From contig JAGAIV010000021.1 in assembly GCA_017626365.1 (NCBI GenBank), positions 6,921-70,920 of the forward strand: a stretch of 64,000 bases of DNA, in the 5' to 3' direction. Made by a program: the position numbers and the translations under genes. Below, one piece after another: positions 9,273 to 61,627 of the stretch. The notes beneath the pieces are model-generated. The model searched no databases, was not told where the DNA came from, and was given only the letters and a program-made list of their open reading frames with translations. Position 1 is the stretch's first letter. Each line of letters opens with the position of its first letter. Origin of the DNA: Clostridia bacterium. GTDB taxonomy: Bacteria; Bacillota; Clostridia; TANB77; CAG-508.

Positions 9273-11783
9273 ATGAGAAAACATAATGAGAAAGCTATAA
9301 CATTAATAGCTCTTATAATTACAATTATTATATTACTAATTTTAGCAGGAATAACAGTTAGCTTAGTAGCAGGACAAGATGGAATTTTAAAACATGCAGG
9401 ACAAGCTAAAATAGAAACTGAAAAATCAGAAATAGCAGATATGTTAGCATTAGCAGTAGCCAATATAAAAGTAAAAAGTGTGGCAGAAAAGCAACCATTA
9501 TTAAGCTATTATGAAACATCAGAAGTATTTATACAAAAAGGAGAATTCGATGTAGTACAATATCCAATAACAGGATATGAGCTAAGTGAAGAACAGGATA
9601 AAGTAACATTATCTGCCAAAAAACAAGGTGGAACAGGAAGAGAATATATATACCAAATAGATATAGAAACAGGAAAAGTAACAAATATAGGAGAAGGAAC
9701 AGCGGGAGAAATACCAAAAGTAATAAGTAGAATAAATTATGTATTAAATGGAGGAAGTTTTGAACAAGAAAGTATAACTCAATATACGGAAGGAGAAACC
9801 GTAGGATTAAGTGTACCAAAAAAGACAGGAGCAGCATTTGACGGTTGGTATCAAAATGCAAGTTTTAGTGGAGAATGTATATATAGAACAACAGAAAATA
9901 TGACAGGGGATATAACAGTATATGCAAAATGGATAGAGGAAACAAATGCAGATTATTTTACATATACAACGTCAGATGGAAAAGATACAATAACAGGATT
10001 ATCTGATGCTGGAAAAACGGCATATGCAAATGGAGAAATAAATAATTTAATAATACCAAGAAAACATGGAGAAAATGATATTGTGGCAATAAAGAGCAGT
10101 GCATTTTCAAGCAGAACTACTTTAACAAGAATTGTTATACAAGATAATATAGAAACAGTGGAAGGTAGTGCATTTTCAAATTGTACAGGAATAACAGAAC
10201 TAGTTGTACCAATATCATTAAGTGTAGGAAATGCTCAATTTGTTGGTTGTACAGCGATAAAAACAGTGAAATTCACTAAAGGAACAGGAATAGGACTTGA
10301 CCATACTGGAGGTAAGTATGATGTTAATTATTGTTTAGGCACACCTTGGTATTATTCAAGAAATAGTGTAACAGAATTAGTATTTGAAGAAGGAATAACA
10401 TCAATTGGCGCAAACACATTTAATTACTGTACGGTAATACAAAATATAAGCTTTCCATGTACACTAGAAAAAATAGGAGAAAAAGCATTCTATTCTTGCA
10501 GTGGTATAACGAAAATACAATTGCCAAATGTAAAAGAAATAGGTAATTATGCTTTTAGAGGATGTAGTGGAGTTATAGAAGAATTAATATTGCCAGAACA
10601 ATTAAAGATAATAGGAGAAAATGCGTTTGAGTATTGTACAATCCCAGGAACATTAATAATACCTGACAGAATAGAACAAGTAGGGAATAATGCATTTAAT
10701 AATTGTACGAATATAGAAAAGGTCATTATTCCTGATAATGTAGAGACGATAGGAGAAAAAGCATTTAACACTTGTACGGGAATAAAAGAAGTAATTGTAC
10801 CAGTATCATTAAGTTTGGAAAATCTACAATTCATTGGTTGTACAGGAATAACAAAAATAACATTTACAAAAGGAACAGGAATCGGAGCTGATCATTCATA
10901 TGTAATGTATAATTCTAGTTATGGAATGTATACATGGGAAGCTTCAAAAAATAGTTTAAAAGAAGTAGAGTTTGAAGAAGGAATAACTTCAATTGGAGCA
11001 AAATCATTATATAATAGTACAGCATTACAAAAAGTAACTTTTCCAAGTACGCTAGAAAAAATAGGAGAAAATGCATTTTTTGGTTGTAGTGGGCTAACAA
11101 AAATACAATTGCCAGATGGAATTAAAGAAATAGGCAATTATGCTTTTAGAGGATGCAGTGGTGTTGTAGAAGAACTAGTATTGCCAAAACAGTTAAAAAA
11201 AATAGGAGAATATGCATTTTATAATTGTAAAATGAAAGGAGAAATAGTTATTCCAGATAGAATAGAACAAGTAGGAAACTATGCATTTTGTGATTGCACT
11301 AATATAGAAAAAGTTGTTATACCAGATAGTGTAGATACGATAGGAGAACGTACATTTAGCGGTTGTACGGGAATAAAAGAAGTAGTTGTACCAATATCAT
11401 TAACTTTGGAAAACTTGCAATTTATTGGTTGTACAGGGATAACAAAAATAACATTTACAAAAGGAACAGGAATTGGATCCGATCATGCATATGTAATGTA
11501 TAATTCTAATTATGGAATGTGTACTTGGGAAGCTTCAAAAAGTACTTTGAAAGAAGTAGAGTTTGAAGAAGGAATAATATCTATTGGTATAAATACATTA
11601 TATAATAGTACAGCATTAGAACAAGTAAGTCTTCCAAGTACATTAAAAACAATAGAAGAACAAGCATTTTGGAATTGCTACAACGCAACATTTAATTATA
11701 ATGGATCACAGAGTGGTTGGAATAGTAATGTAACTGTTGAAAGTGGAAATGATAAAGTAACAGAAAATCTAAATTGTAAGTAA
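9273..11783 (+). CDS. BspA-type leucine-rich-repeat surface protein with pilin-like N-terminal anchor
   Basis: N-terminus EKAITLIALIITIIILLILAGI. Repeated IPDxVExIGExAFxxCTxIxxV modules. Three ~200-aa internal repeats. Confidence 0.7.
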   Translation: MRKHNEKAITLIALIITIIILLILAGITVSLVAGQDGILKHAGQAKIETEKSEIADMLALAVANIKVKSVAEKQPLLSYYETSEVFIQKGEFDVVQYPITGYELSEEQDKVTLSAKKQGGTGREYIYQIDIETGKVTNIGEGTAGEIPKVISRINYVLNGGSFEQESITQYTEGETVGLSVPKKTGAAFDGWYQNASFSGECIYRTTENMTGDITVYAKWIEETNADYFTYTTSDGKDTITGLSDAGKTAYANGEINNLIIPRKHGENDIVAIKSSAFSSRTTLTRIVIQDNIETVEGSAFSNCTGITELVVPISLSVGNAQFVGCTAIKTVKFTKGTGIGLDHTGGKYDVNYCLGTPWYYSRNSVTELVFEEGITSIGANTFNYCTVIQNISFPCTLEKIGEKAFYSCSGITKIQLPNVKEIGNYAFRGCSGVIEELILPEQLKIIGENAFEYCTIPGTLIIPDRIEQVGNNAFNNCTNIEKVIIPDNVETIGEKAFNTCTGIKEVIVPVSLSLENLQFIGCTGITKITFTKGTGIGADHSYVMYNSSYGMYTWEASKNSLKEVEFEEGITSIGAKSLYNSTALQKVTFPSTLEKIGENAFFGCSGLTKIQLPDGIKEIGNYAFRGCSGVVEELVLPKQLKKIGEYAFYNCKMKGEIVIPDRIEQVGNYAFCDCTNIEKVVIPDSVDTIGERTFSGCTGIKEVVVPISLTLENLQFIGCTGITKITFTKGTGIGSDHAYVMYNSNYGMCTWEASKSTLKEVEFEEGIISIGINTLYNSTALEQVSLPSTLKTIEEQAFWNCYNATFNYNGSQSGWNSNVTVESGNDKVTENLNCK

Positions 11784-16377: not shown

Positions 16378-16707
16378 ATGGCAACAACAAAACAAATGGT
16401 AGGAAGCGAGAAAATCAGAATAAGATTAAAAGCTTATGATCACGTTGTTTTAGATCAGTCTGCTGAAAAAATAGTAGATACTGCTAAAAGAACAGGAGCT
16501 AAAGTTTCAGGTCCTATTCCATTACCTACACAAAAAGAAGTTGTAACAATTTTACGTTGTCCTCACAAATACAAAGATTCAAGAGAACAATTTGAAATGA
16601 GAACACATAAAAGAGTTATTGATATTCTTTACCCAACACAAAAAACAGTTGATACTTTAATGAAATTAGAATTACCAGCTGGTGTTGAAATAGAAATCAA
16701 ATTATAA
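16378..16707 (+). CDS. rpsJ: 30S ribosomal protein S10
   Basis: [22 protein letters not shown]...[11 protein letters not shown]. Confidence 0.95.
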
Positions 16708-16714
16708 GAAAATT

Positions 16715-16805
16715 AGGCGTTAGCAAAATCAAAGATTTTGACGCCACAATGCACAAAATGCTTCGCATTTGCGCAGAATCAAGGTGAATTAACCTTGTTA
16801 CATTG
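16715..16805 (+). ncRNA. Structured intergenic element, copy A. A second copy lies at 32644-32735.
   Basis: Hairpins GGCGTtaGCAAAATC/GATTTTGaCGCC and CAAGGTgaattaACCTTG. About 80% identical to copy B, with compensatory changes. Confidence 0.5.
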
Positions 16806-16886
16806 CAAAAATCTAACGATTTTCACAATGTAATAGTAAACAAAACCAAGCTGACAAAGTCAGCCAATAGTTAGGAGGAAATTTTA

Positions 16887-18569: not shown

Positions 18570-19397
18570 ATGGGAATGAAACATTTTAATGCCTATACTC
18601 CATCAAGAAGAAACATGACAGTTTCTACTTATGAAGAAATTACAAAAAAGACTCCTGAAAAATCTTTACTTGCAAAAAAGAAAGAAAAAGCAGGAAGAAA
18701 CTCATATGGTAGAATTACCGTTCGTCACCAAGGTGGAGGAAATAGACAAAAATACAGAATAATCGATTTTAAACGTAATAAAGACGATATGGTAGCTACT
18801 GTTATCGGTATCGAATATGATCCAAACAGAAGTGCAAATATCGCATTAGTAGAATATGAAGATGGAGAAAGAAGATATATCTTAGCTCCAGTTGGATTAA
18901 CAGATGGAGACAAAGTAGTATCAGGAGCAAAAGCTGATATTAAACCAGGAAACTGTATGCCAATCGAAAGCATTCCAGTTGGTACATTAATTCATAATAT
19001 CGAATTAAATCCAGGTCAAGGTGGAAAAATGGTAAGAAGTGCAGGACAAAGTGCACAACTTATGGCAAAAGAAGGAAAATATGCTCACGTAAGATTACCT
19101 TCTGGAGAAATGAGATTAGTTATGACAAGATGTAGAGCAACAATAGGAACTGTTGGAAACACAGATCATGAAAATGTAAAATTAGGTAAAGCTGGAAGAA
19201 CAAGACATATGGGAATTCGCCCTACCGTTAGAGGTTCTGTAATGAACCCAGTAGATCACCCACATGGTGGTGGTGAAGGTAGAGCACCAGTTGGACGTCC
19301 AGGACCACTTACTCCTTGGGGTAAACCAGCTCTTGGATACAAAACAAGAAAGAAAAATAAACTTTCTAACAAATTTATTGTTAAGAGAAGAAAATAA
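18570..19397 (+). CDS. rplB: 50S ribosomal protein L2
   Basis: Conserved L2 sequence. Confidence 0.95.
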
Positions 19398-19510
19398 AAA
19401 GTTAGCTGTTAGCGGGTAAGAAAGTATTACAGATAACTTTGTCAACCGAAAGGATTGAGGTTGACTACCTATAATGAAAAAACTCTTAGAAGAAAAGGAG
19501 GAAAAATTTA

Positions 19511-24905: not shown

Positions 24906-25394
24906 ATGGAAGAAACACAATTAGAATTAAAAGAGAAAGTTGTTGCAATCAACAGAGTTGCAAAAGTTGTAAAAGGTGGTAGAACTTTCCGTTTTAGTGC
25001 AGTTGTAGTTGTAGGAGACGAAAACGGACACGTTGGTGTTGGAAACGGTAAAGCAGCTGAAGTTCCAGATGCTATCAAGAAAGCAATCGAAGATGCTAAA
25101 AAGAACTTAATTACAGTTCCAGTTGTAGGAACAACAATTCCTCATGAATATATCGGAAAATTTGGTAGTGCAAATGTTATGTTAAAACCAGCAGCAGAAG
25201 GTACTGGAGTTATTGCAGGAGGTAGCGTAAGACCAGTCCTAGAACTTGCAGGTTACAAAGATATCAGAACAAAAGTATTAGGAACAAACAATCCAAGAAA
25301 CGTTGTATATGCAACACTTAATGGATTAGCTAATATGAGCACAGTAGAACAAATTGCGAAAAAAAGAGGAAAGAAAGTAGAAGAAATATTATAA
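24906..25394 (+). CDS. rpsE: 30S ribosomal protein S5
   Basis: [18 protein letters not shown]. Confidence 0.95.
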
Positions 25395-25583
25395 TATAGT
25401 GAATAGTTAATGGTGAATAATGAATAGTGAATTACAGAAGCACCATTTAGATATTTACAAAACTAATTAATAAACAAAATTGAATAATTGAAATGAGGAT
25501 AATACATAATGAATTGATAAGTATTCATTATTCACTATTCACCATTCATTATTCATTAATAAATGAAGGAGGTGCAAATCAAA
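25395..25583 (+). repeat. Spacer of GTGAATA-type repeats in both orientations. It occupies the position where rpmD (L30) normally lies.
   Basis: Left arm tagtgaatagttaatggtgaataatgaatagtgaat. Right arm attcattattcactattcaccattcattattcatt. No L30-like ORF present. Confidence 0.6.
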
Positions 25584-26018: not shown

Positions 26019-27338
26019 TTGTTTAAGACAATCAAAAATGCCTTAAAAACACCAGAAGTTAGAAAAAGACTTATTTATACATTAGTATTAATAGTAGTTT
26101 TTAGACTAGGTTGTTTTATTACTATTCCAGGGGTTGATACATTTGCTTTAAATGAAGCAATGAAATCAAGTAATGGAATTGGTGGATTGATTAATATTAT
26201 TTCAGGTGGAGCGTTTTCTAGATTTTCTATTTTTGCTATGACGATCAGCCCATATATCACAGCATCAATTGTAATCCAATTATTAGCTATGGTAATTCCA
26301 GCATTAGAACGTTTAGCAAAAGAAGGTGGAGAAGAAGGAAGACAAAAAATGAACAGATATACAAAATACTTAACAATTGTTCTTGCAATTGTAGAAGCAT
26401 TAGGTATATACCTTTCATACCAATCTTCAGGAATATTTATTAATCCAGGATTTTTAACAGGATTTATTGTAGTACTTTCATTAGTTGCAGGTACAGCACT
26501 ATTAATGTGGCTTGGTGAACAAATTACAAACAAGGGTATTGGAAATGGAATTTCTATTATTATCTTTATTGGTATTGTTTCAAGTTTACCAAGTGTTGTA
26601 ACTACACTATGGAATTTGATTTTTGGAACTGGTACATTTAGTACAAGTGGTTTATTATTAGCAATTGGTATTATTATTGGAGCAATTGTTCTAGTTGCAG
26701 GTGTTGTATTTGTACAAACAGCTGAAAGAAGAGTTCCAGTACAATATGCTAAAAAAGTAGTAGGAAGAAAAATGGTAGGAGCACAAAATACACATATTCC
26801 ATTAAAACTTGCTATGGCAGGTGTAATGCCAGTTATTTTTGCTTCTTCATTCATGACCTTCCCAGCAATGATTTTACAAATATTTATAAAAGACATTGCA
26901 ACCCAAACTGGTTTCTGGGCAGGAGTATACAAATTTTCAATTGCAACATCAACATCAAATGTTCCAATTGGATATACTATCGCAAATGCACTTGTATACT
27001 TATTACTAATTATAGGATTTACATTTTTCTATACTTATGCTACATTCAACCCAGCAGAAGTATCAAACAATATTAAGAAAAATGGTGGATTTATACCAGG
27101 AATTAGAGCAGGAAAACCAACAACAGATTATTTATCAAGTGTTATTTCAAAAATAACATGGTTTGGAGGATTCTTCTTGGCACTAATTGCAATCCTTCCA
27201 ATGCTAATCCGTTTTACAGGATTAAACGTAGCATTTGGAGGAACATCAATCCTAATCGTAGTAGGTGTAGCACTAGAAACTGTACAACAATTAGAATCAT
27301 TATTAATGATGAGACATTATAAAGGATTTTTAAGTTAA
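26019..27338 (+). CDS. secY: Preprotein translocase SecY
   Basis: TTG start; 10 TM segments; conserved sequence. Confidence 0.9.
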   Translation: MFKTIKNALKTPEVRKRLIYTLVLIVVFRLGCFITIPGVDTFALNEAMKSSNGIGGLINIISGGAFSRFSIFAMTISPYITASIVIQLLAMVIPALERLAKEGGEEGRQKMNRYTKYLTIVLAIVEALGIYLSYQSSGIFINPGFLTGFIVVLSLVAGTALLMWLGEQITNKGIGNGISIIIFIGIVSSLPSVVTTLWNLIFGTGTFSTSGLLLAIGIIIGAIVLVAGVVFVQTAERRVPVQYAKKVVGRKMVGAQNTHIPLKLAMAGVMPVIFASSFMTFPAMILQIFIKDIATQTGFWAGVYKFSIATSTSNVPIGYTIANALVYLLLIIGFTFFYTYATFNPAEVSNNIKKNGGFIPGIRAGKPTTDYLSSVISKITWFGGFFLALIAILPMLIRFTGLNVAFGGTSILIVVGVALETVQQLESLLMMRHYKGFLS

Positions 27339-27491
27339 TAAAAGAAATAAGAAAGTGTAATAGAGATATGATATCTATTGCACTTTTTTATTAAGAAAAA
27401 TGTACAAAAAACAGTTGAATAATTTTGCAAAAAGAGATATAGTATATAGGGCTATTTTAATAGCAAATAAATAAAAAGGAGTTTGAAGAAT

Positions 27492-29985: not shown

Positions 29986-30384
29986 ATGGCTAATAAAAAA
30001 ACGGTAGCAAAGAAAACACCTAGAAGAAATAGAAAAAATATTGAAAAAGGTGCTGCACATATTCATTCAAGCTTTAACAATACAATTGTTAGCATTACAG
30101 ATACTCAAGGAAATGTTATTTCTTGGGCAAGTGCTGGAGAATTAGGATTCAAAGGTTCTAAAAAATCAACACCATTCGCTGCTGGAGAAGCTGCTGAAAC
30201 AGCTGCAAAAGCTGCAATGGAACATGGATTAAAAACAGTAGAAGTATTCGTAAAAGGACCAGGTTCTGGTCGTGAAGCTGCAATCCGTTCACTTCAAACA
30301 GCAGGATTAGAAATTAGTGCTATTAAAGATGTAACACCAATTCCACATAACGGATGTAGACCACCAAAAAGAAGAAGAGTATAA
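29986..30384 (+). CDS. rpsK: 30S ribosomal protein S11
   Basis: Conserved S11 sequence. Confidence 0.95.
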
Positions 30385-30451
30385 AGTGTGCTTCGCACTA
30401 GTGAATAACAAATAATGAAGAGTGAATCATGAATATGAAAGGAGAAAGAAA

Positions 30452-60939: not shown

Positions 60940-60992
60940 AATAGTGGAAAAAACAGGAACTTTTTTCTTGTTATTTTCCACTATTTATGCTA
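60940..60992 (+). terminator. Long hairpin after spoVT
   Basis: AATAGTGGAAAAAACAGGAAC...TTCTTGTTATTTTCCACTATT. Confidence 0.6.
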
Positions 60993-61627
60993 TAATACCA
61001 AATGATGGTGCATTATTCTAGTAATATTGTCTATTACGAGGGTGGGGCTAAAAATCCACTAAAGGGCATATCGATGAAGTTTCTTGTTAGTGCGCGGTAA
61101 CGCCCAGTTTTGTGTGCTTTCAGGGAGTAAAGATGTTAGGAAAATATGTAATGGCATACATAGCATTTATCCTATCGTCGCGGAGGCTTAATCAGTTTTT
61201 TTAAAATTCAGTTTAAGTAAAACCTATATAAAGTGCCAAGACACAATATATAGAGTAGCCTGTCTCGAGTGGTAAGTTTGGGATTAGTTGAAACGGTTTT
61301 TTCATTACAATAGCTAAGTAATAAAGAAATTATGACTATGAAATTATTACTGCAAAAAAGACTAGTAATAGATCCAATATTTCAAGGAAAACTTCTAGAA
61401 TGTTTGTACAAAGTACGAGAAAGTCTAAGGATTAAGGTGTAGATTTTAGTGGCTGTCTGGTATTCTTTTATCTCCTTTAAAACTAGATAAAAGAATATTT
61501 TCTTTAAATGGAAACAGCTAAACAGTAATGTTTAGTAGAAAATAGAGAAATTCGGCTAGACCTATACTACAAAGTTTACTTAGGCTTTTACCATCTTTAT
61601 ATATAATATGAATAAGAGGAGAAACAA

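Follow-up and report, generated by a model that had tools for sequence, protein, structure and literature searches.

A candidate family of insertion-polymorphic, four-hairpin repeats in the ribosomal super-operon of uncultured gut Clostridia

Introduction

Why would two spacers in the S10-spc-alpha super-operon of a gut bacterium carry similar, structured, non-coding DNA? The question is raised by a 64,000-nt stretch (hereafter "the window", with all coordinates given on its plus strand) of contig JAGAIV010000021.1, which derives from a metagenome-assembled genome (MAG) of an uncultured gut Clostridia bacterium with a GC content of 30%. A preliminary description of the window, made by reading the letters, had noted a structured element of ~95 nt with two hairpins that occurs once after rpsJ and once after rplQ. 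It left four explanations side by side, namely a processing or stability element, a ribosomal-protein autoregulatory site, a small RNA, or a structured repeat.

Here, we show that both copies are members of a family of non-coding elements, ~125-160 nt long and with four hairpins, in AT-rich uncultured gut Clostridia (CAG-508 / Merdicola-like MAGs). On balance, we favor the view that these are non-autonomous, insertion-polymorphic structured repeats, which would insert at an ATAA sequence or stop codon so that the upstream gene is spared, and would then be passively co-transcribed with it. Elements of this kind are known; the family itself appears to be new, with no match in Rfam or in plasmid and phage collections, and we do not assign it to any of the known repeat families.

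Two copies with four hairpins each

Taken as a whole inserted unit, copy A spans positions 16704..16836 and consists of an ATAAG leader followed by four hairpins (H1 to H4), ending in ..TGTAATAG. Copy B spans 32640..32765 and likewise comprises an ATAAG-type leader and H1-H4. In both cases the TAA of the leader doubles as the stop codon of the upstream gene, that of rpsJ at 16705-16707 and that of rplQ at 32641-32643. The copies are thus ~126-133 nt long. They are 80% identical over 75 ungapped nucleotides (repeat family D12), identical in 77 of 99 aligned columns, and 75% identical over the full unit. Core motifs of 23 nt and 18 nt occur in the window only in copies A and B, against chance expectations of 0 and 0.4, respectively, and a covariance model built from nine copies, run with filters off, detected no third copy in the 64 kb.

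Minimum free energy (MFE) folding places H1 of copy A at 16716..16745, with an outer stem GGCGT/ACGCC, a 3-nt bulge (TAG), an inner stem CAAAATC/GATTTTG, and an AAA loop. H1 of copy B (32649..32684) pairs as TGGACGT..ACGTCCG around an inner stem and loop of CGAAATC-AAA-GATTTCG. H2 was also taken from the MFE fold, and reads TGC.CAAAATGC-TTC-GCATTTG.GCA in copy A (16750..16775) and TGT..GATTGC-TTC-GCAATC..ACA in copy B (32686..32711); a direct reading of the pairwise alignment shows three compensatory changes between them. H3 is CAAGGT-GAATTA-ACCTTG in copy A (16780..16797) and CAAGGT-AAATTA-ACCTTG in copy B (32715..32732), and both its stem and its asymmetric loop are nearly invariant. H4 begins directly after H3. 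In copy A (16798..16833) it is formed by TTACATTG..AAAATC-TAAC-GATTTT..CAATGTAA, which is homologous to the H4 of other copies (consensus TTGnATAGcAAAAATC..GATTTTTnCTATnCAA) and has an outer stem that covaries among them; in copy B (32733..32761) it is TTTAATAGAAAAA-TGA-TTTTTCTATTAAA.

Most of what the preliminary description reported about this element stands. The positions of the two copies and their 80% identity are right, as are the second hairpin, CAAGGT-RAATTA-ACCTTG, the pairing-preserving differences in the first (GGCGT..ACGCC versus GGACGT..ACGTCC outside, CAAAATC/GATTTTG versus CGAAATC/GATTTCG inside), and the unusual ~180-bp spacer between rpsJ and rplC, which measures 179 nt. The element is also real and structured; its extent, however, was underestimated, since H2 and H4 had been missed and the unit is longer than the 91 nt allotted to copy A. 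The described absence of a terminal U-tract holds as well. There is no U-tract and no terminator-like site in either copy, so an intrinsic terminator was rejected, and the T-runs of H4 lie inside its stem.

Both copies fold more stably than shuffled sequences (z = -5.5 for copy A and -6.8 for copy B). The reverse strands of the two fold equally well, so that fold energy is uninformative as a test of which strand matters, and in seven of the nine full copies described below the fold of the antisense strand is at least as good as that of the sense strand.

A small hairpin, GTGC-TTC-GCAC, is found elsewhere in the window at 30387-30400, after an open reading frame (ORF) that ends at 30384 and before the next one. 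It has the TGCTTCGCA nonamer in common with the tip of H2; with a chance expectation of 0.18 per window, this may be a coincidence.

Empty sites in a sister species and a patchy distribution

For comparison, the ribosomal-protein operon centered on S5, with 10 kb on each side, was taken from 80 related species. The closest of these (L004) has 97.5% amino-acid identity in S5, 95% in L17, and 91-94% nucleotide identity to the window. At both orthologous sites it is empty. Its rpsJ-rplC spacer is 58 nt long versus 179 nt in the window, ~121-123 nt of copy A being missing, and the interval between rplQ and the downstream S-adenosylmethionine (SAM) riboswitch is ~116 nt longer in the window, with ~116-119 nt of copy B missing from L004. 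The blocks missing from the sister species, 16707-16838 and 32646-32766, correspond to H1-H4 as a unit. Such filled and empty orthologous sites between close relatives are what is expected of interspersed or mobile repeats.

The preliminary description had suggested a covariance-model search of relatives with a model of the two copies. Run on the operons of the 80 related species, this search did recover further covarying homologs, and it located them in only four species (76 of 80 being without the element) and in different spacers. The element lies after rplB in L061 and after rpsE in L027; L043 has two copies, one after rpsE and a short variant after rpsS; and L036 retains an H1-only remnant after rpsE. 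A second covariance model, built from nine copies, found no additional members in the 80 related loci. The distance from the element to the downstream ribosome-binding site varies between copies.

Over the full unit, copy B is 82% identical to the element of a human-gut species described below (L184) and 81% identical to that of L061, and copy A is closest to that of another non-ribosomal locus (L203), at 79%. The two window copies are thus nearer to copies in other genomes than to each other, which argues that they did not arise by local duplication; judging from these identities, element lineages are common to several species and loci.

Covariation maintains all four hairpins

Covariation was assessed in nine copies from seven genomes. 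A MAFFT alignment of full units mis-registered H2 and H4, and pair counts were therefore taken from a model-fitted alignment, which leans towards the structure, so that the following numbers are somewhat generous. Standard pairs make up 94.6% of the pair cells, and double (compensatory) changes are found at 12 of the 27 pairs, in 22 cells. None of 500 shuffles reached these values, and sliding the partners by 1-3 columns left 27-43% of the cells paired. The same four hairpins were obtained when each of the nine full copies was folded on its own.

The covariation is concentrated in the outer stem of H1, in H2, and in the outer stem of H4. Four of the five pairs of the H1 outer stem are doubly changed, the variants being GGCG/CGCC, GGACRT/AYGTCC, GTGG/CCAC, and GTGCG/CGCAC, with GGTATT/AATACC in the L036 remnant, and the inner stem and loop of this hairpin are nearly invariant. 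In H2 (helices 3 and 4), six of nine pairs are doubly changed, and the structure is kept while the sequence varies. Hardly any variation is seen in the H3 stem, at the tip of H1, or in the asymmetric loops (AAA and AAATTA). Conserved asymmetric loops of this sort point to recognition in single-stranded form, either as RNA or as single-stranded DNA, and argue against a double-stranded palindrome. Selection on the secondary structure of the element, which the earlier reading had proposed from two copies, is well supported by this comparison of sequences.

G.U pairs outnumber A.C mismatches by 10 to 2 on the sense strand, a weak strand indicator whose count is biased by the model-fitted alignment. 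Polymorphism could be followed in the L184-type copy, for which 14 strains were available. Six sites vary in its 134 nt, versus three in 357 nt of flanking intergenic DNA, which gives no indication that purifying selection acts more strongly on the element than around it.

Copies next to unrelated genes

The searches of relatives described so far were confined to ribosomal-protein operons. A loose DNA pattern, AAATCAAAGATTTYN{9,10}ATGY, gave 98 matches in viral contigs, all of which were chance matches according to the covariance model, and a two-anchor pattern that is blind to genomic context was adopted instead. Against viral contigs, used as a control for chance, it gave 0 matches, and against metagenome contigs it gave 24. 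Twenty of these represent a single locus (L184 type) of a human-gut species, in a 550-nt intergenic region upstream of rpoB, where the element runs opposite to rpoB and also to the other genes that flank it. A promoter-like TTGACA-17-TATACT on the rpoB strand of this locus would put the reverse complement of the element in the rpoB leader. One further match was the L043 locus again, and another (L189) was rejected as a chance match inside a coding sequence and without the H1 outer stem. In L193 a UDPGP-family gene ends in the element, which provides its last codons and its stop codon. In L203 the element interrupts a PDDEXK_2 gene, the break being at profile position 177 of 229, and is followed by a partial second left end, ATAAGAAAATAGGCATTAGC.

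A protein search with the one open frame of the element, among 5.8 billion predicted proteins, yielded a single 52-amino-acid product (P0001). In the contigs that encode it (L207), a copy lies in the 3' untranslated region (3'-UTR) of a LytR_cpsA_psr (LCP) gene, ~10 nt before a canonical terminator.

In the contexts in which it is oriented like the upstream gene (9 of 10), the element starts at the stop codon of that gene or within ~35 nt of it. The ribosomal association seen in the window is therefore partly an artefact of the choice of search; even so, of the five distinct loci that were found without choosing the context, two adjoin translation or transcription genes.

A separate feature of the L184 locus is a common breakpoint (..CAAATTTTTCCGTTTT) that lies ~330 nt to the right of the element (L184 ~3290), upstream of which the strains have three different sequences. 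The region upstream of the rpoB promoter is therefore structurally variable.

Ends of the element and a proposed mode of insertion

At their left end, the copies begin with ATAAGAWAATTRG (ATAAG, or ATAAT in the L036 remnant), and ATAA is present in 10 of 10. In all six ribosomal copies, including that remnant, the TAA of this leader is the stop codon of the upstream gene; in the non-ribosomal contexts the leader motif is present without having that role. The right end reads ..CTATnCAATAA in most copies, with CAATAA in ~7 of 9. Direct repeats, read by eye, flank some of them: AAAATAA in L061, AACATA in L184, and CTATTTATAA versus CTATTCAATAA (CTATTnATAA) in L203. They may reflect either a short duplication or a target sequence similar to the terminus of the element itself, although the DNA is rich in AT.

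Based on these features, we propose that the element either uses an existing ATAA|G junction or generates one on insertion. Since a TAA stop codon often falls at this junction, the upstream gene would stay intact; the right end of the inserted element would usually be CAATAA. Thereafter, it would be carried passively in the transcript, as an intercistronic segment or in the 3'-UTR. The nearly invariant H1 tip (CGAAATC-AAA-GATTTCG), the H4 core (AAAATC..GATTTT), and H3 could be recognized as single-stranded hairpins by a mobilizing factor, and the outer stems and H2 would need only to pair. The H1 tip and the H4 core have AAATC..GATTT in common, and the left flank is a constant ATAA. Because related hairpin cores thus lie near both ends, the left tetranucleotide is constant, and terminal inverted repeats are lacking, we consider a single-strand (HUH/Y1-type) or site-specific mechanism more probable than one based on a DDE transposase and terminal inverted repeats (PMC6006769).

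Several observations weigh against mobility of this kind. A clean target-site duplication could not be shown, as the only empty sites come from a different species and their flanks are not identical. When the left 30 nt of seven copies were compared with the reverse complement of the right 30 nt, no terminal inverted repeats were found; the local scores ranged from 5 to 9 (shuffle p-values of 0.02-0.99), and no repeat was consistent between copies. Neither a transposase nor an autonomous parent turned up, no genome-wide search aimed at one having been made, and the plasmid and phage collections held no match to the element. Copy number appears to be low, with two copies in the 64-kb window (in one operon), two in L043, and one pattern-matching locus in a species represented by 20 contigs. 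Covariation in all four hairpins exceeds what recognition of the ends would need. Finally, the element is oriented like the upstream gene in 9 of 10 contexts, as a function at the RNA level would also predict.

A bolder version of the proposal would make the element a stop-codon-homing cassette. Here, ~130 nt of hairpins without terminal inverted repeats would integrate at (T)ATAA, bring or regenerate a TAA, and so colonize even the densely packed, essential ribosomal-protein and RNA-polymerase operons harmlessly; the H1 tip and H3 loop would serve both a mobilizing enzyme and the host mRNA (for example, as a barrier to decay), and the family would be one of several with fast turnover in the operon spacers of the clade. 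We regard this as speculative and rather doubtful in its full form.

Comparison with known elements

The closest described analogue is bcr1 of the Bacillus cereus group, a transcribed element of ~155 bp with 5-bp direct-repeat flanks, whose stem-loops are kept by compensatory changes (PMC3184786). The two resemble each other in their occurrence in Firmicutes, their size, their several independently compensated stem-loops, co-transcription with neighbors, positions that vary between close relatives, a short AT-rich direct-repeat flank (putative in the window element), and the lack of an assigned transposase (PMC3184786). In contrast to bcr1, which has tens of copies per genome and a defined 5-bp duplication, the window element is seemingly low-copy and its ATAA flanks are only suggestive. 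It also has four hairpins and a left junction fused to a stop codon, and a sequence relationship, for which no search was made, is not apparent.

ERIC, and RU-1 of 127 bp, are similar in their length of ~127-130 nt, conservation across species, low-to-moderate copy number, and location in transcribed intergenic regions; they too are often near the 3' ends of genes, are present or absent at orthologous sites, and are sometimes inside or fused to ORFs (PMC3184786, PMC2759123). However, ERIC forms a single long, imperfect palindrome, has terminal inverted repeats, and inserts in either orientation (PMC3184786, PMC2759123), whereas the window element consists of four separate hairpins, lacks terminal inverted repeats, and has a strong orientation bias. 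For the same reason, the absence of terminal inverted repeats in seven copies, a classical miniature inverted-repeat transposable element derived from a DDE transposon was rejected.

Elements of the IS200/IS605 group and their non-autonomous derivatives, the PATEs and REP/REPIN-RAYT systems, resemble the window element in having hairpins near both ends on one strand, with related cores (the H1 tip and H4), a constant left tetranucleotide, and no terminal inverted repeats (PMC6006769). A further point of likeness is that, within ribosomal operons, the element lies on the G-rich strand, which is the lagging-strand template (PMC6006769). On the other side, a TnpA or RAYT partner did not turn up, again with no search aimed at one, H1 and H4 differ too much to be close copies, and the L184-type copy is on the opposite replication strand. 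A replication-strand rule was accordingly dropped, as the L184-type element is found on the C-rich strand, unlike those of ribosomal operons. REPs (repetitive extragenic palindromes) are 20-40 nt long, have GTAG or CGTC heads, and reach high copy numbers (PMC3733652); in size, head motif, and copy number, the window element does not fit them (PMC3733652).

MIRUs are likewise small repeats inside operons that are oriented with transcription and insert at a gene-boundary codon with little disturbance of the neighbor's expression (PMC12548453). They do so at start codons and with a coupled small ORF (PMC12548453), whereas the window element is found at stop codons, without a conserved ORF and without overlap or a fixed relation to downstream starts. 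Ribosomal-protein leaders, such as the S10/L4 leader and the L17 downstream element, are also structured RNAs inside ribosomal-protein operons, but the window element is conserved neither in position nor in presence, matches no Rfam leader at E<=10, and has copies in unrelated loci.

Alternative explanations

Of the four explanations offered at the outset, the structured repeat fits the comparative data, and the autoregulatory site and the small RNA are unsupported. The processing or stability element survives in part, and leads to the alternative that we take most seriously. In this scenario, which we regard as possible but clearly less probable than insertion of a passively carried repeat, the element is a portable, cis-acting RNA module placed after a stop codon, where it acts as a barrier to 3' exonucleases, an RNase processing site, or an insulator between cistrons. 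It would adjust stability or stoichiometry in operons with high expression and, being useful, would spread by recombination or horizontal transfer under selection at the RNA level. The sense orientation in 9 of 10 contexts and the proximity to the stop codon speak for it, as do the excess of G.U over A.C on the sense strand, the invariant asymmetric loops of H1 and H3 with their hint of single-strand recognition, covariation in all four hairpins, and the L207 copy, whose place between a stop codon and a canonical terminator puts it in a 3'-UTR. There is also precedent, in that ERIC and Correia-type repeats are documented to change the stability of co-transcribed mRNA (PMC3184786). The best-sampled copy, however, that of the L184 type, runs opposite to the genes on both sides and to the promoter-like site of rpoB, and in the sampled strains it varies at twice as many sites as a longer stretch of flanking DNA. 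The antisense strand folds as well or better in most copies, the sister species does without the element at both sites, and the G.U count comes from a model-fitted and hence biased alignment. As a segment of the mRNA, the element might still influence processing or stability passively.

An independently transcribed small RNA gene is improbable. The size and compact multi-hairpin fold resemble those of small RNAs, and the L184-type copy stands alone in its 550-nt intergenic region. Promoter- and terminator-like sites in the window copies, however, number at or below shuffle expectation, with no promoter-like site before the copies and no terminator after them. Inside operons, moreover, the element begins exactly at the upstream stop codon; it has no U-tract, and its distribution is sporadic.

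Still less probable is a ribosomal-protein autoregulatory site that mimics rRNA within the S10-spc-alpha super-operon. At first sight the location favors it, since ribosomal-operon spacers hold both copies of the window as well as five others, remnants included (after rplB, after rpsS, and three times after rpsE), and so does the covarying RNA structure. This explanation is, however, largely refuted by the distribution of the element. Its sites are empty in L004, its position depends on the species, and 76 of the 80 relatives lack it; other copies adjoin LCP, UDPGP, and PDDEXK_2 genes or lie antisense upstream of rpoB. The element overlaps no ribosome-binding site or start codon. In Rfam 15, there was no match over either window copy at the gathering level or at E<=10, ribosomal leaders included, nor was there one over the L184 copy. 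The truly conserved feature of the rpsJ-rplC spacer is another hairpin, at ~16845-16872.

A coding remnant or small ORF (frame IRKLxVxEIKDFD) is hardly credible: the frame is open through H1-H3 in five of eight copies, is joined to upstream ORFs in L203, and accounts for the 52-amino-acid gene call P0001, but 1-2-nt indels shift it, a stop is read at codon 3 in copy B, L061, and L043, substitutions keep base pairs rather than amino acids, and its translation has one match among the 5.8 billion proteins.

If the favored reading of a passively carried, insertion-polymorphic repeat is true, the long spacers in the most conserved operon of this genome are recent insertions and not regulatory RNAs. 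This matters for the mining of leaders in ribosomal operons, since the hairpin before rplC that is genuinely conserved is not this element. Structured elements would come and go quickly in the S10-spc-alpha spacers of small, AT-rich gut Clostridia, and these spacers would offer both a natural system in which to study the tolerance of hairpin cassettes inside essential polycistronic mRNAs and a source of strain-level markers. With its good covariation support and absence from Rfam 15, the family could be added there as a repeat-type motif.

Neighboring genes and other features of the operon spacers

The gene upstream of copy A is rpsJ (S10; 16378..16707), with the Pfam domain Ribosomal_S10 assigned on an identical product, and the gene downstream is rplC (L3; 16887..17516; Ribosomal_L3). 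Upstream of copy B is rplQ (L17; 32107..32643), taken from the ORF list, with an uncertain start codon; its tblastn match is co-linear in the ribosomal-protein operon of related loci, an exact search with its product matched no contig, probably owing to a wrongly placed start, and the L17 name is that given by the preliminary description. Downstream, copy B is bounded by the SAM riboswitch of metK (32776..32879; Rfam RF00162, 78 bits), which is outside the element.

Directly upstream of the rplC ribosome-binding site, at 16844-16879, is a hairpin AACCAAGCTGAC-AAA-GTCAGCCAATAGTTAGGAGG that occurs in ~40 of 45 related species. Its flanks, ACCAAGC and GCCAATAG, are conserved, its loop ranges from 3 to 45 nt, and its stem covaries (GCTGAT/ATCAGC, GCTAAT/ATTAGC, GCTAAC/GTTAGC). 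The only Rfam signal is a sub-threshold match of 24 bits. What is conserved in the rpsJ-rplC spacer is this hairpin and not the repeat, and it is a candidate for an internal leader.

The window differs from L004 by at least eight spacer indels of 80-1000 nt, and the ribosomal super-operon spacers of the clade are, on this comparison of sequences, a zone of rapid turnover. Other, unrelated structured inserts occupy the same spacers in relatives, among them a CAGAAGT-repeat hairpin, a GGGGACA..GTCCC family, and AT-rich repeats. A further family, AAGTTAGCYGT..TTACRGATAACTT, is present both in spacers of relatives and in the rplB-rpsS spacer of the window. In that spacer, at 19397-19500, lies a structured insert of a second family, unrelated to the four-hairpin element (AAGTTAGCTGT..TACAGATAACTT together with a hairpin GTCAACC..GGTTGAC), which L004 lacks at this site. 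Relatives of this insert family are found in other spacers of L004, L010, L011, L044 (four in tandem), L072, and L079, and the family has no match in Rfam.

The rpsE-rplO spacer, 168 nt long in the window and 20 nt in L004, contains (25387-25561) a long hairpin with TGAATAG/TGAATAA-like repeat arms of 36-40 nt that are 80-86% complementary and ~90 nt apart. L012 and L019 have a hairpin of the same architecture that is built from CAGAAGT repeats. There is no L30 gene between S5 and L15 in the window. Between secY and adk, inside the operon, L004 has a 1-kb insert (L004:12285-13307, versus window 27338-27415) with what appear, on reading the sequence, to be its own terminator and promoter and two small genes, one of them DUF1064-like.

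Further from the ribosomal spacers, 591-nt tandem coding repeats (three copies, 63-81% identity) extend over 10100-11712, and an array with 12/24-nt periodicity over 38697-39008; both probably belong to repeat-containing surface proteins. The window also encodes a full-length OLE (ornate large extremophilic) RNA at 60989-61610, which was recognized with a score of 341 bits.

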